DNA from: Shigella phage pSf-2
DNA length: 50,109 bases
Sequence record: KP085586
Direction: 5' to 3' (one strand)
Of this stretch, positions 42,874 to 47,513 are shown in pieces. The position numbers and the translations under genes are program-made. Positions within the stretch are counted from its first letter, which is position 1. The number at the start of each line of letters is the position of its first letter. Under the pieces are notes generated by a model. It was not told the origin of the DNA, searched no databases, and saw only the letters and a list, made by a program, of their open reading frames with translations.

Positions 42874-43068
42874 TTAAGCCTCTGCAAAGTAAGTGTTAAA
42901 GCCTTTGAGTTTGTAGTCGCTACCTACGCGCACAACATTCCAGGTAAGGCCAGAGTGATACGCCACCATATCTTCCAGGTCGATTGTGATTTCAGTTCCT
43001 TTCTTGAACAGACCCTTTTCATGGGTTGAGTCCCGCTGAACAACCACTACGTCAATTTGCGTTTCCAT
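42874..43068 (-). CDS. hypothetical protein (start moved to internal ATG)
   Basis: agagga SD before ATG 43068; track start 43134 lies inside the motif. Confidence 0.45.
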   Translation of the reverse strand: METQIDVVVVQRDSTHEKGLFKKGTEITIDLEDMVAYHSGLTWNVVRVGSDYKLKGFNTYFAEA

Positions 43069-43126
43069 CTTTGTTTCCTCTGTATCGTTTCGATGATAAG
43101 ATAATACCCGATCCGCTAGACCGGGC

Positions 43127-43144
43127 TTTAACAAAAAGTGCTAT
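43127..43144 (-). promoter_or_regulatory. 18-bp dyad motif copy (tttaacaaaaagtgctat)
   Basis: Overlaps TAG stop of 43141..43461; minus strand: 22 nt then tattat. Confidence 0.7.
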
Positions 43145-43461
43145 TCTACGGTAAACTCGACGTCGGTGATTTTCCACCCCTCAGTCTTGGGAGTGGTGAG
43201 GTTCTCAATTTCAAGAATGTTACCCTCAACCTTGAGGAATTTTAGATCTTGCCCACTTATTTCACGCAACTTACCTACGAGCATTCCAGCGTTTAGTCTT
43301 ACGACGCTCTCATCGAATCCTTTTGTGAAGTATCCTGGGCCAACGGTATCAAGGTTTATCTTGATTGACCTCTTACCAATCAGTGCGTCAGCTATCTTCT
43401 TGATGTTTTCCTTCTGCTTACCAATTACCTTACGCCCTTCTTCTGTTAACGGTTTAAACAT
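43141..43461 (-). CDS. hypothetical protein
   Basis: 106-codon ORF. Confidence 0.5.
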   Translation of the reverse strand: MFKPLTEEGRKVIGKQKENIKKIADALIGKRSIKINLDTVGPGYFTKGFDESVVRLNAGMLVGKLREISGQDLKFLKVEGNILEIENLTTPKTEGWKITDVEFTVE

Positions 43462-43473
43462 AGTAATTTCTCC

Positions 43474-43989
43474 TCACAGTCCGCACTTTTCGATATGCGC
43501 TTTCATCTGGCGAACCAGGTCGCGCACGGTGCTTACAGCCACGTCACCTTTCTCAAGGTCATCAATATCAGGAACAAACGAGTCCAGGCAGTCGGACAGG
43601 CTAACTTTTTTCCGGCTACGGCGCTTCTTCACCGGAACCTCTTCATCAGTAACGGTAACGGTTATCATTGTGATTGCCGACTCATTCCGGCCCACCTTCA
43701 CCTTTGCCATCTTGCCGTACTTGCAGAAGTGCCGGGTAATAATCGGAGTGATGAAAGCAGACTTAAATCGCTTCTCCACCTCCTTCCCGTTCGAGGTCAA
43801 CCATGTTGATACACCTCGCTCAATCTCTTCCTCTGTAATATCCCGATCTCGGAAGTAAAATTTTACCGCCTCTCTCGCCATATCATCAGCCAAGAAAGAG
43901 AACTCGGTCATGCCTTTGTCGCGATACATTGCGTCGCAGGTTAGGCGAATCATGTCGGTGATTTTTAATTCCTGACTGGTATTGCTCAT
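43474..43989 (-). CDS. hypothetical protein, first gene of leftward early operon
   Basis: 171-codon ORF, basic patch KKRRSRKK. Confidence 0.55.
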   Translation of the reverse strand: MSNTSQELKITDMIRLTCDAMYRDKGMTEFSFLADDMAREAVKFYFRDRDITEEEIERGVSTWLTSNGKEVEKRFKSAFITPIITRHFCKYGKMAKVKVGRNESAITMITVTVTDEEVPVKKRRSRKKVSLSDCLDSFVPDIDDLEKGDVAVSTVRDLVRQMKAHIEKCGL

Positions 43990-44047
43990 AATATATCCTC
44001 TTTGTCTATTCGCGTGTAAATGGTGTCATAATGTGTCAACAATTGCC

Positions 44048-44076
44048 ATTGTGACATCTCGATGTAGAGCTGTCAA
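44048..44076 (-). promoter_or_regulatory. sigma70-like promoter candidate (TTGACA-17-CACAAT) for leftward early operon
   Basis: Consensus -35 with 17-bp spacer, 58 nt upstream of ATG 43989; TGTCA/TGACA inverted repeats nearby. Confidence 0.4.
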
Positions 44077-44129
44077 TGCCTGCGAGCCAATTTTAAGCCG
44101 TGTAACATTTGTCTAGCTGTCTATAGCCA

Positions 44130-44390
44130 CTATAGAAATATATGGCTCTCAAAAAAAGTACTGTATATATAAACACTCAGATAGAAATATGCCAACAGTA
44201 CGCTAGACAATGTAAGACAGCTATACACAACTATTACAATATAATTATCTATATATATAAATAAAAAAAACACTATATATATTATATATATACATATATC
44301 TATATGTATATTGTGAGGCGTCACAGTGTGTATTTTTGTCACAAGTGCGATTCTAGACAAATATTACAGTCGTGACAAGTTAAAGTGTAA
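44130..44390. repeat. AT-rich tract with (TA)n/ATATA runs and TAGACA / GTCACAAG repeats; candidate origin or early control region
   Basis: Long ATATATA-type tracts at 44160-44320; repeated ctagacaa, gtcacaag/gtgacaag words. Confidence 0.45.
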
Positions 44391-44393
44391 TCG

Positions 44394-44411
44394 ATAGCAC
44401 TTTTTGCTAAA
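44394..44411 (+). promoter_or_regulatory. 18-bp dyad motif copy (atagcactttttgctaaa)
   Basis: First rightward copy; no clear -10 at 22 bp. Confidence 0.5.
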
Positions 44412-44598
44412 AATGGAGATGAATGCCAGGCGAACCGGGTAACACCAATTCCTCCCTCTCACAATCATTGCATTCTCAGCAACAAATCAACCAACTGTTG
44501 CACACCATGCAATAATCACGTTTCATCATTCGTAATCAATAACAATCAAGATTATTCCACCTATTCCAGTATTGATTGAATAATGAGCAATTATTGGA

Positions 44599-44616
44599 AT
44601 AGCATTTTTTGCTAAC
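44599..44616 (+). promoter_or_regulatory. 18-bp dyad motif copy, variant (atagcattttttgctaac)
   Basis: tatgat about 23 nt downstream, then caaccaatcaggag leader to ATG 44675. Confidence 0.6.
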
Positions 44617-44674
44617 GACTTAGCAAGGCCGATTGGGTATGATTCATCACATCAACCAATCAGGAGCAATCGAC

Positions 44675-44818
44675 ATGACAACTGCAAACATCAACGCAAC
44701 AATTAATCGTTACGAACACATCTATCGCGTAGCGCTGTTCTCTGACATGGCGTTAGCTAACAAGGCGAAGTTAATAATCGACAAACTGAATCACTACAAA
44801 AAGGAGATCGAAAAATGA
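44675..44818 (+). CDS. hypothetical small protein (start moved to internal ATG)
   Basis: aggag SD 8 nt before ATG 44675; track start 44633. Confidence 0.4.
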   Translation: MTTANINATINRYEHIYRVALFSDMALANKAKLIIDKLNHYKKEIEK

Positions 44819-45519
44819 AGTTGATTTGGTCGCTATTCGACGGTTCCGGCCTGGCAGGTCATGAACTGGCAAAGCAAGGTCATAAGGTGATGTGCTTCAA
44901 CTTTGACGGGGCAGATCACGGAGATTACGCAAAGTACAATGCCCGGGTAGAGCATCCGAACATTGAGTATGTGAACGTCTTCATTGATGAGAAGTTCGAA
45001 CGTGATGCGATCGCTGGTGTGTATGGCAAACCTGATTTCATCATGGCTTTCCCACCATGCACTGACCTAGCTGTTAGTGGTGCTCGCCATTTTGCCAGCA
45101 AGCGTGAACGTGATCCGTTATTCCATGAGAAGGCTGTTGCCACCGCTCGGATTGCTGCTAATATTGGCGAAGCTATGGGCGTGACGTACATCATTGAGAA
45201 TCCGGTTAGCGTCCTGTCATCTGCCTGGAGAAAACCAGATCACTCCTTTAATCCCTGGGAGTATGGCGGCTATCTTCCTGAGAATGACTCACATCCCTGG
45301 TTCCCGATGTATATTGCGCCGCGCGATGCTTACCCTAAGAAGACGTGTCTTTGGACCTCGGACGATTTTGTCATGCCGGAGAGAAATCCAGTAAGCCTGC
45401 CTGACGGGTACTCTGCACAGCAAAACAAGCTGGGCGGCAAGTCTGCCAAAACTAAGCTGATACGATCCCTGTCGCCGCGTGGATTTTTCAAAGCGATCGC
45501 AAATAGCACTTTTTGTTAA
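44815..45519 (+). CDS. minimal C5-cytosine methyltransferase-like protein
   Basis: Motif I-like LFDGSGLAG, PC motif FPPCTDLAVSG, ENV-like IIENPVS with canonical spacing; only 234 aa; aaggag SD. Confidence 0.5.
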   Translation: MKLIWSLFDGSGLAGHELAKQGHKVMCFNFDGADHGDYAKYNARVEHPNIEYVNVFIDEKFERDAIAGVYGKPDFIMAFPPCTDLAVSGARHFASKRERDPLFHEKAVATARIAANIGEAMGVTYIIENPVSVLSSAWRKPDHSFNPWEYGGYLPENDSHPWFPMYIAPRDAYPKKTCLWTSDDFVMPERNPVSLPDGYSAQQNKLGGKSAKTKLIRSLSPRGFFKAIANSTFC

Positions 45520-45520
45520 A
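45503..45520 (+). promoter_or_regulatory. 18-bp dyad motif copy (atagcactttttgttaaa)
   Basis: Encodes C-terminal ...NSTFC* of upstream gene; 22 nt then cataat. Confidence 0.7.
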
Positions 45521-45579
45521 ACTCGATCGGTGTGATTTGGCATAATTACCTCATCGAAACGAGATTGAGGAAAAACAAA

Positions 45580-45765
45580 ATGGCACGTCGCATCACTAAA
45601 GACCTTAAAGTCCTGAACAAAGAAAACGTAGTTAAAATTCTGGTTATTTGGGGTTACAACGAAGAATCAGCAAAGCATAAGGTAGAAGCGGGTTACGACC
45701 TGGCTGTCAAGGCAATGCCTAACGACGACGCCAAAGGCATTGTAAACTATGTAGCATTCTTTTAA
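45580..45765 (+). CDS. hypothetical small protein (start moved to internal ATG)
   Basis: gagga SD before ATG 45580. Confidence 0.45.
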   Translation: MARRITKDLKVLNKENVVKILVIWGYNEESAKHKVEAGYDLAVKAMPNDDAKGIVNYVAFF

Positions 45766-45780
45766 TTAACGGGCTAACAA

Positions 45781-45966
45781 ATGAAAACGAAATTAGTGCA
45801 TAAATCAGAAATCAAGATCGGCGATACTGTGATTCACAACGGAGAGCTTAGAACAGTTGGTAAGGAGTCAATAAGCAGAGATGAATTTATGGGGTTATTG
45901 TTGTTCGGCGACTCCTATCGCCTGGGGTGCAAAATGGTTGAGCTTGTTGAGGAAGTAAAATTCTAA
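45781..45966 (+). CDS. hypothetical small protein
   Basis: 61-codon ORF, weak SD. Confidence 0.4.
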   Translation: MKTKLVHKSEIKIGDTVIHNGELRTVGKESISRDEFMGLLLFGDSYRLGCKMVELVEEVKF

Positions 45967-45984
45967 ATAGCACGAATTGCTAAA
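45967..45984 (+). promoter_or_regulatory. 18-bp dyad motif copy (atagcacgaattgctaaa)
   Basis: Starts right after TAA of upstream gene; 22 nt then cattat; leader shared with copy at 5207. Confidence 0.7.
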
Positions 45985-46048
45985 CATGCCGGAATGGAAT
46001 CTGGCATTATTACTTCATCGAAACGAAACATCAAAACAGGAATCGGAA

Positions 46049-46231
46049 ATGAAAAAGTTAACATCAAACACAAAATATGAAATTATTGACGGTGAAGCTA
46101 TTATTTATGCTCGCGCGAAAGGATCAAATAAACTAACAGCCGCATTCAAATGCCACCCAGCGACAATTGATCTCATCAAAGAGTATGGATTCAAGTCGGC
46201 TATAAGCAAGTCGTTATTATGCAAGGCTTAA
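46049..46231 (+). CDS. hypothetical small protein (start moved to internal ATG)
   Basis: aggaa SD before ATG 46049; track start 45977 lies inside motif. Confidence 0.45.
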   Translation: MKKLTSNTKYEIIDGEAIIYARAKGSNKLTAAFKCHPATIDLIKEYGFKSAISKSLLCKA

Positions 46232-46300
46232 CGCTTTGGGTAAAAATATAAACAATGACACACAATACTATAAGTGGGATCTCGTAAAATATTTATCAAA

Positions 46301-46318
46301 ATAGCACGAATTGCTAAA
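46301..46318 (+). promoter_or_regulatory. 18-bp dyad motif copy (atagcacgaattgctaaa)
   Basis: 22 nt (with hairpin ccccga/tcgggg) then tatagt; caaccaatcaggag leader to ATG 46377. Confidence 0.7.
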
Positions 46319-46376
46319 CGCCCCGAAGGGAATCGGGGTATAGTAAACAACATCAACCAATCAGGAGAATCGCCAG

Positions 46377-46607
46377 ATGGCAATCAAACATCCCGGATTA
46401 AAGAAAGCAATCCAGCGAGCCAATGACGAGGGATTTATTGTATATCGAACACATTACGGTCACATGGGTGGACTTAAAGAGCATCATACAAAGGTTGAGC
46501 TTGTGGACTTATGGGAGGATTACGATACATTCCAGTACATCGCCACGTCTGACGTAGAGGCGCAAGTGAAATACATCAATGACACTATTGATAGCTTCAG
46601 AGGGTAA
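46377..46607 (+). CDS. hypothetical protein
   Basis: 76-codon ORF with aggag SD. Confidence 0.5.
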   Translation: MAIKHPGLKKAIQRANDEGFIVYRTHYGHMGGLKEHHTKVELVDLWEDYDTFQYIATSDVEAQVKYINDTIDSFRG

Positions 46608-46611
46608 TTAT

Positions 46612-46983
46612 ATGTTTAAGCAGTTCACAGATCTGGACTTCTCAGCCAGCACGGCAATCAAGACTGACGAGAAAGAAAGCGTAGCGATCGAGAACATCGC
46701 GCGCAAGATTTACAACAAGCAAGAGAAGGCCGTTAGAGCCGCTCTGAGCGCTTATTACGGTGTAAGTGATGCAATGGAGTGTGTTAGCAGGGTAACGCGC
46801 GTAGTGGACAGTTCTGGCGCGCCTCGTTTCGTAGATGACGATACTGGCGAGACAATCATTCAACTTAACAATCCATCCATGCGCACAGAGTTAGGAAACG
46901 TCGCATTGTGGGGCGTGGCTAACTACTCAATCACCGTCAATTCCTGCATTGCGCACCGTGTTAAGGAGGCATTGTATGAGTGA
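46612..46983 (+). CDS. hypothetical protein (start moved to internal ATG)
   Basis: ATG 46612 five nt after upstream TAA; track start 46579. Confidence 0.5.
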   Translation: MFKQFTDLDFSASTAIKTDEKESVAIENIARKIYNKQEKAVRAALSAYYGVSDAMECVSRVTRVVDSSGAPRFVDDDTGETIIQLNNPSMRTELGNVALWGVANYSITVNSCIAHRVKEALYE

Positions 46984-47176
46984 TAATATTTACCGCGTAG
47001 TGGCGATCTCACGCAAGACGCAAAAGAGCGTAGTTGCCTACATGGGAAATAGCGCCATTGAGGCAACAGACGACTTCGAGCTACTGAAGAATAACGAAGG
47101 ATTTATGAACACGTTCCGCGTTCGACTTGAGCGTCTCGAACCTGTTATAATTGATGAAGCGCGAAAGCTATCCTGA
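46976..47176 (+). CDS. hypothetical small protein (start moved to internal ATG)
   Basis: aaggagg SD before ATG 46976; overlaps upstream TGA. Confidence 0.45.
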   Translation: MSDNIYRVVAISRKTQKSVVAYMGNSAIEATDDFELLKNNEGFMNTFRVRLERLEPVIIDEARKLS

Positions 47177-47192
47177 CTGGTTAGGGGGAATA

Positions 47193-47513
47193 ATGAACCA
47201 CACTTATAAAATCACAACGAAATCACCGAAGATTAACGGAAGCACGGTCGCGGCATTGAATAACGCGGCAGCAATCCACGAAAAAAACATCATGGAGCGC
47301 GTGAAGGCGGCAGTAGGCCGATTCTATGGAATCAACGCTGATATTGCCGACAGCAAGCGACTGTTCAAATACGTGCCAGGTCATCCATATAGCCGGATGA
47401 TCGATATTAAGCATGATAAAGAACTGGTTCGAATCGGATCGCTTAGCATTGACGAGTTCGACCATAGCATTAACCTTGTGACGGCGTATCAAACATGGGA
47501 CGGTAAAAAATGA
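47193..47513 (+). CDS. hypothetical protein (start moved to internal ATG)
   Basis: aggggg SD before ATG 47193. Confidence 0.5.
   Translation: MNHTYKITTKSPKINGSTVAALNNAAAIHEKNIMERVKAAVGRFYGINADIADSKRLFKYVPGHPYSRMIDIKHDKELVRIGSLSIDEFDHSINLVTAYQTWDGKK

Follow-up and report, generated by a model that had tools for sequence, protein, structure and literature searches.

The window analysed in this study is the whole sequence of Shigella phage pSf-2 (KP085586; 50,109 nucleotides), a complete T1-like genome (Drexlerviridae, Tunavirinae, Tunavirus). Its first 25 kb show 92-93.5% identity to the Shigella phages phiL, ISF002, Shfl1 and others at a coverage of 100% (megablast). Near the right-hand part of the window lies a gene for a protein of 234 residues (Table 1), in which a preliminary description had noticed the sequences FDGSGLAG, PPC and ENPVS and a likeness to DNA cytosine-C5 methyltransferases. 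The open reading frame (ORF) and all three sequences were confirmed (residues 8-15, 80-82 and 128-132, respectively). They correspond to motifs I, IV and VI of the C5-methyltransferases. Sequence comparison, a structural model and analogy with a characterised homolog make it very likely that the gene encodes an active, stand-alone DNA cytosine-C5 methyltransferase that depends on S-adenosylmethionine (SAM) and belongs to a compact Dcm-like family widespread in enterobacterial phages. The family is known, annotated and partly characterised, and membership in it is an ordinary finding.

The protein matched PHROG 757 ('DNA methyltransferase') from end to end (residues 1-231, E 8.4e-84). Homologs were detected by tblastn in 1520 phage records (Escherichia, Klebsiella, Salmonella, Shigella, Vibrio, and others), many of them annotated as cytosine methylase; they span Drexlerviridae, Dhillonvirus, rV5-like and other large phages. 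The homologs in a large protein collection formed 4921 clusters at 90% identity, and an exhaustive HMMER scan gave 994 clusters at 50% identity, nearly all of them 210-260 residues long. Short length is therefore a stable trait of the family, and the view of the preliminary description that the enzyme is truncated has to be given up. In a family alignment of 36 diverse members, down to 31% identity, the residues G22, C82, G89, E128, P130, P147, D171, Y173, K175, T177, W180, P188, R217 and G223 were invariant (36 of 36 members). The C-terminal 50 residues ranked among the best-conserved parts of the family.

Profile-profile comparison linked this family to the classical enzymes. The profile of the 36 members was aligned by hhalign with a profile of eight canonical C5-methyltransferases (six phage enzymes, E. 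coli Dcm and Klebsiella Dcm), and a match with a probability of 91% and an E value of 1.1e-6 was found over 119 columns, covering motifs I to VI. The pairs FDGSG/FAGIGG, FPPCTDL/FPCQxFS and IENPV/LENVK stood in register. Taken with the invariance of C82, E128 and P130, this match shows that the likeness of the three motifs goes beyond chance. A single Dcm sequence was too weak a partner in hhalign (E 0.016), and the canonical alignment built from annotated phage records was used instead. The alignment to Dcm ends past motif VI, and the target-recognition domain of Dcm was not matched. On this reading, the protein has the catalytic core of C5-methyltransferases as far as motif VI, and the equivalences proposed for motifs VIII and IX are positional. 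Strand 2, which carries motif II (a ribose contact in canonical enzymes), ends with Asn29 in the subgroup formed by the T1-like, KarlJaspers and rV5-like proteins, where this residue begins a short stretch (positions 44899-44922 of the window, residues 29-36) that continues with the subgroup-specific D-x-x-D-H-G-x-Y; other family members have Asp at this place.

Past motif VI the protein follows a plan of its own. D171-x-Y-x-K175-x-T177 occupies the place of the canonical motif VIII (dyGxPQxRxR in M.HhaI and Dcm); the equivalence is positional only, the hhalign alignment of the two was not significant, and QxRxR is absent. Only 53 residues follow the strand equivalent to motif VIII. They contain a conserved basic loop, K205-L-G-G-K-S-x-K-T-K-x-I-R217-S-L-S-P-R-G223, and then a final helix; in addition to the invariant P188, R217 and G223, the residues L206, G207, G208, K209, S210, T213, K214, S218, P221 and R222 are nearly invariant. 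The end of this loop, R217-S-L-S-P-R-G223, is conserved in the family and resembles motif IX (R-x-L-T-P-R-E). For the C-terminal half, the best local match in hhalign paired KxIRSxTPR with RxLTPR of motif IX, at a non-significant E value of 0.094; in a relaxed alignment R217-S-L-S-P-R-G223 was paired with RRLTPRE, and neither the global nor the relaxed alignment of the C-terminal half was significant. About 35 residues (182-216) separate the beta-7 strand from the motif IX-like segment, compared with at least about 80 in a typical target-recognition domain. No motif X (GN(S/A)V) was found in the protein, which ends 11 residues past G223. Of the parts that the preliminary description had reported as missing, a target-recognition domain of normal size and motif X are indeed lacking, but a motif IX-like RS(L)(S/T)PRG is present, as is a K175-K176-T177 strand at the place of motif VIII.

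The AlphaFold model (built with 47 homologs) is compact and confident (pLDDT 90.7, pTM 0.89). It has the strand order of class I methyltransferases, with strands at residues 143-145 and 177-181 among them, a flexible catalytic loop (residues 80-90) and three short helices past strand 7. In a Foldseek search of the PDB, DNMT3A and DNMT3B came out on top (E 9e-8, probability 1.0); generic Rossmann methyltransferases scored no more than 9.5 over about 115-145 residues in the fold comparison. The fold of the modelled protein is that of a C5-methyltransferase. Thus the C5-methyltransferase-like identity proposed in the preliminary description is borne out by PHROG 757, by profile-profile comparison and by fold, and the protein is probably an unusually small yet complete enzyme.

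Table 1. Features of the methyltransferase gene and its surroundings in the window, the companion dam gene, and two disrupted alleles from related phages.
Feature	Position	Strand	Basis or remark
Gene of the compact Dcm-like DNA cytosine-C5 methyltransferase (very probable function), 234 residues, ATG start	44815..45519, stop codon included	+	ORF listing
Shine-Dalgarno sequence AAGGAG, 8 nt 5' of the methyltransferase ATG	44801..44806	+	read from sequence
Motif I, F8-D-G10-S-G12, predicted SAM-binding loop after strand beta-1	44836..44850	+	paired by hhalign with canonical FAGIGG
Motif IV, F79-P-P-C82-T, putative catalytic cysteine (Cys82 codon 45058-45060)	45049..45063	+	paired by hhalign with FPCQ
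Motif VI, E128-N129-P130, ENV equivalent (E128 codon 45196-45198)	45196..45204	+	paired by hhalign with ENV
Family-specific motif VIII: P147-W-E-Y-G-G-Y, insertion of about 20 residues, D171-A-Y-P-K175-K176-T-C-L-W-T (strand beta-7)	45253..45357	+	position
C-terminal segment, residues 182-234, in place of target-recognition domain and motifs IX and X	45358..45516	+	conservation
ORF of 61 residues upstream of the methyltransferase gene	44633..44818	+	its TGA overlaps the methyltransferase ATG (ATGA)
Accessory cassette of about 2 kb: methyltransferase gene and about five small ORFs of unknown function	44657..46610	+	absent from T1
Second orphan methyltransferase, T1-type Dam (N6-adenine, NPPY), 237 residues	4440..5153	-	ORF and Pfam
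Allele of phage IME18	L015:939-1595		1-bp deletion at the equivalent of window position ~45396; C-terminal 40 residues lost; compared with window 45355-45519
Allele of phage FCWL1	L016:401-949		gene stops after KKTCLW (codon 180); compared with window 45355-45519

The closest characterised relative is the Dcm of phage KarlJaspers (Bas06), with which the window protein shares 56% identity (BLASTP E 6e-88, residues 3-228). The gene is labelled 'Dcm-like C5 cytosine methyltransferase' in the BASEL collection, and Drexlerviridae have been described as abundantly encoding N6-adenine and C5-cytosine methyltransferases (BASEL, PMC8594841). In the KarlJaspers-like phage K42, four of four mutants escaping the retron Ec86 (Eco1) carried a disruption in dcm (711 bp) or in the ribosome-binding site of that gene, and K42 Dcm expressed alone arrested growth only in cells carrying Ec86 (10.1101/2023.08.16.553469). 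Liquid chromatography-mass spectrometry of the multicopy single-stranded DNA (msDNA) revealed a high level of 5-methylcytosine (5mC), co-eluting with the 5mC standard, when K42 Dcm was present, and a low level with the C82A/E128A/K175A/K176A quadruple mutant or the empty vector; each of the three mutants of the msDNA CCTGG site (AATGG, ACTGG and CATGG) abolished defence, and 34 of 35 Ec86-sensitive phages encode such a Dcm (10.1101/2023.08.16.553469). This preprint was published as Cell Rep 2024;43:114857 according to PMC12916289, and the triggering of Ec86 by phage Dcm has been restated as established in later papers (e.g. PMC12916289). The different activity that the preliminary description had considered finds no support in the homolog, which makes 5mC on DNA and is inactivated by the quadruple substitution of C82, E128, K175 and K176. 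For the window protein itself, family membership, fold and conservation of the catalytic residues are established; the formation of 5mC and the triggering of the retron are established for the homolog only. By analogy, we infer activity of the window allele, CCWGG specificity, an anti-restriction benefit and a role of the C-terminal loop.

A second methyltransferase is encoded far from this gene, on the minus strand. The NPPY-containing, Dam-like enzyme of the preliminary description was confirmed: NPPY is present in the translation, and the product matched PF05869 (Dam) with 231.8 bits against a cut-off of 28.1 (E 4.8e-69). The C5-type enzyme is likewise an orphan, as had been proposed, with no nuclease partner among the neighbouring ORFs.

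On this basis the following course of events is proposed. The C5 enzyme would be expressed from an accessory cassette of early genes. A target cytosine would be flipped into the pocket, where the thiolate of Cys82 (motif IV) would attack C6 and Glu128 (motif VI) would protonate N3; SAM, bound by the motif I loop, would give its methyl group to C5, and beta-elimination would free the enzyme. Lys175 and Lys176 may stand in for two arginines of motif VIII, and the 53-residue C-terminal segment with the basic loop KLGGKSxKTKxIRSxSPRG may replace the usual target-recognition domain of 80-150 residues. The enzyme would methylate replicating phage DNA and, as a bystander, host DNA, probably at CCWGG like the host Dcm. 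Acting alongside the phage Dam (GATC), it would forestall restriction enzymes unable to cut DNA so marked, and a phage with an intact gene may be protected from enzymes that Dcm-type methylation blocks. Anti-restriction is the accepted rationale for such genes and is putative here. The window shows no avoidance of CCWGG (83 sites, about 100 expected), a figure that is uninformative either way. In hosts with Ec86/Eco1 the enzyme would come at a cost, as methylation of the msDNA stem-loop would lead to abortive infection. E. coli BL21(DE3) natively encodes Ec86 (10.1101/2023.08.16.553469). Phages with an intact copy of the gene are expected to be sensitive to Ec86/Eco1 hosts, such as E. coli B/BL21, which amounts to a host-range prediction.

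Site counts in the window were compared with Markov expectation for palindromes in general. Under-represented were CTAG (21 observed, 60 expected), GGCC (78 and 124), GGACC (8 and 16) and GTAC (104 and 147); GATC (250 sites) and CCWGG are not strongly avoided.

Alleles at least 80% identical to that of the window were found in about 38 distinct phages. The window allele is intact and 94-97% identical to those of most relatives. Three close relatives list BL21(DE3) as host; in two of these, IME18 and FCWL1, the gene is disrupted such that the C-terminal segment is removed (Table 1), and in the third, IME167, it is intact. Four phages from other hosts (LHE71, ADB-2, phiD2-2 and vB_SsoS_008) look frameshifted. 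The association of disruption with growth on BL21 fits both a cost imposed by the retron and an importance of the C-terminal segment, and is only suggestive.

Several results weigh against an active Dcm-like enzyme. The enrichment of disrupted alleles in BL21-grown phages was not significant (one-sided Fisher p 0.06-0.08; three phages). The protein lacks motif X and has a non-canonical motif VIII; its C-terminal half is without significant similarity to canonical enzymes in hhalign, and the acidic position of motif II is Asn29 in this subgroup. Residues G10, S11 and G12 of motif I are invariant in close homologs and variable across the wider family. The profile search with PF00145, which the preliminary description had proposed as a check, fell short of the gathering score (13.2 bits against 22, E 0.058, residues 6-105 only); the other proposed check, structure prediction, came out in favour of the assignment. 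Among the 36 family members, PF00145 was detected at E<1 in only seven (best 0.0067), and none reached the threshold. No match was obtained in a search of NCBIfam, and no methyltransferase was found among PDB sequences, either by phmmer with the protein or by hmmsearch with the family profile. No simple link between methyltransferase genes and resistance to restriction was seen among the Drexlerviridae of the BASEL collection (PMC8594841). In the study of the homolog, a CCWGG specificity was presumed from the analogy with host Dcm, and the msDNA site mutations were its only test; the host was dcm+ MG1655, in which msDNA methylation was still low in the empty-vector control (10.1101/2023.08.16.553469).

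These last two points bear on the alternative that survives best. It is conceivable, though we think it distinctly less probable than methylation at CCWGG, that the enzyme methylates cytosine C5 in DNA at a target other than the Dcm site, its specificity being shorter, relaxed or dependent on structure. Tentative candidates for the target are CCNGG, the outer cytosine of CCWGG, and DNA in hairpin or single-stranded form, and the benefit could then lie in protection from other nucleases or in something besides anti-restriction, which we hold with equal reserve. The motif VIII-like strand is separated from the motif IX-like segment by only about 35 residues, which show no similarity to the target-recognition domain of Dcm and would suit such an enzyme, and CCWGG was assumed, not mapped, in the retron study (10.1101/2023.08.16.553469). 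No mapped methylome for the compact family was found in the literature. In MG1655, host Dcm neither appreciably methylated the msDNA nor triggered Ec86, and the phage enzyme did both; because the msDNA of dcm+ MG1655 is poorly methylated and Ec86 silent in cells without the phage enzyme, a different or broader specificity is possible. However, overexpression and access to the msDNA could account for this difference from host Dcm, the loss of defence with three of three CCTGG mutations fits recognition of the whole CC(W)GG core, and phages with the gene plate on mcrBC+ K-12 (MG1655), which speaks against dense methylation in purine-C contexts.

With similar caution, it may be that the compact family reads DNA unlike any solved C5-methyltransferase, by means of the basic loop of about 35 residues and the insertion of about 20 residues. 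The specificity or substrate could differ from those of host Dcm, for example if a shorter motif were read or if hairpin or single-stranded DNA were preferred, but this too we would put at well below even chances. If so, a recognition unlike that of Dcm would explain why the phage enzyme, and not host Dcm, methylates the msDNA and triggers Ec86 in dcm+ cells. Learning how an enzyme of 234 residues picks its sites could yield a very small 5mC writer, programmable or broadly acting.

The use of the C5-methyltransferase fold for another reaction or substrate, such as C5-carboxymethyl transfer (8yf3), tRNA (Dnmt2) or free nucleotides, is very unlikely. The absence of motif X, which is part of the canonical cofactor pocket, and the loose conservation of motif I in the family would be compatible with it; however, the product that the homolog forms on DNA co-elutes with the 5mC standard, and the neighbouring ORFs include no genes for carboxy-SAM synthesis or hypermodification. 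Least probable of all is that the gene is what decay has left of a full-length methyltransferase, without catalytic activity and kept fortuitously or for some non-catalytic purpose, DNA binding for instance: the protein falls short of even the smallest classical enzymes by about 100 residues and stays below the Pfam threshold, the cysteine is lost in some family members (P0244 and P0264) and several close relatives are frameshifted, but length and C-terminal segment are conserved across the 994 clusters, no catalytic residue varies, the structural model is a compact one of high confidence, the homolog is active, and the window allele is intact and close to those of most relatives. A separate recognition subunit encoded next door was also considered and rejected; the neighbouring genes are not the same in different phage genera, and K42 dcm sufficed by itself in vivo. 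A DNA cytosine-C5 methyltransferase of the compact Dcm-like family is thus the reading that we retain.

Some further members of the family and some related loci deserve mention. In P0244 and P0264 the catalytic Cys is replaced (PPSRDL and PPGRDL, respectively) and long N-terminal extensions are present; as judged from their sequences, these proteins are probably inactive or repurposed derivatives of the family. Two distant family members are located on contigs of 1-2 kb and have no genomic context. In BFVD, the compact methyltransferase fold was found as one domain of two large proteins of uncultured phages, A0A6J5SE15 (1397 residues) and A0A6J5NPY6 (1126 residues), with 25-29% identity and TM-scores of 0.56-0.64; one of the two is annotated with a helicase/UvrB N-terminal domain. 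For the window protein, PADLOC returned only weak N-terminal matches to type II methyltransferases (E 0.0035-0.024). The annotation of Mycobacterium phage Chupacabra splits a canonical C5-methyltransferase into two neighbouring coding sequences of 179 and 139 residues (L008:1138-1677 and L008:1712-2131), both named 'DNA methylase', and several related mycobacteriophages show the same pattern.

The surroundings of the methyltransferase gene place it in an accessory cassette of mosaic character, made up of small early genes: compared with T1, about 2 kb are inserted here, and the gene contrasts in GC content with the downstream ORFs. In blastn against T1 (NC_005833), positions 44513-44656 of the window correspond to T1 48836-48694, and the similarity resumes at position 46611, which corresponds to T1 48675 and runs downward from there; no homolog of the methyltransferase was found in T1 by tblastn with the window protein. 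The GC content of the gene is 0.50; it is lower in the downstream ORFs (0.39-0.42) and in the AT-rich upstream region (0.29-0.40). The ORFs around the gene belong to PHROGs of unknown function, except that the 61-residue ORF upstream has no PHROG match; the ORF downstream encodes DUF7421. No Rfam family was matched within positions 43000..47500. Two antisense ORFs inside the methyltransferase gene (44925..45194 and 45289..45543, minus strand) were taken to be presumable by-products of the coding strand. Among T1-like phages, a methyltransferase gene of this kind is an unremarkable accessory, and it has been annotated in dozens of almost identical genomes.

Further upstream, an AT-rich intergenic region of about 640 bp (43990-44632) separates divergent gene clusters. 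Its GC content in 300-bp windows is about 0.29-0.39, with the minimum at 44100-44399, and long TATATA-type runs are present at 44240-44310. Position ~44513 of the window is where the ends of the T1 GenBank record fall, so that the AT-rich region corresponds to the genome terminus and the terminal-repeat boundary of T1.

Among known systems, phage T1 itself offers the simplest comparison. Its Dam (ST20) shares 98% identity and the family PF05869 with the Dam of the window and shows no difference of note; T1 has this enzyme and lacks the C5-type one. The catalytic domains of DNMT3A and DNMT3B have the same fold as the window protein and a comparatively small target-recognition region, at only 13-16% identity. 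Unlike the compact phage protein, DNMT3 keeps motifs VIII, IX and X in about 280 residues, forms hetero- or homotetramers and has CpG as target.

With the classical enzymes M.HhaI, M.HaeIII and E. coli Dcm/M.EcoRII, the window protein shares motifs I, IV and VI, which keep their order and align in register, and its motif IX-like RSLSPRG resembles their RKLHPRE/RRLTPRE. We take Cys81, Glu119 and Arg165 of M.HhaI to be close in numbering to Cys82, Glu128 and Lys175 here. The Q-x-R-x-R and the GNSV motif X of the classical enzymes are lacking, the Pfam score stays below the gathering score, and the recognition stretch comprises about 35 residues, compared with about 100 in M.HhaI and about 110 in Dcm. 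The N-terminal domain PF18284 was found in all full-length Dcm orthologs retrieved (at least 80% identity) and has no match in the window protein. Between strands 6 and 7 the window protein has an insertion of about 20 residues that is specific to its family.

The closest system is that of KarlJaspers and K42. Their Dcm has 236 residues, compared with 234 here; the proteins are colinear from end to end, both belong to PHROG 757, and C82, E128, K175 and K176 have identical numbers. The phages are of different genera (Tunavirus for the window, Hanrivervirus for KarlJaspers), and 44% of the residues differ from KarlJaspers Dcm, including part of the C-terminal recognition segment (LPDGYSAQQNKLGG in comparison with EDDKDNPGWAKTGG). 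In both Drexlerviridae phages the gene is found among early genes near the helicase.

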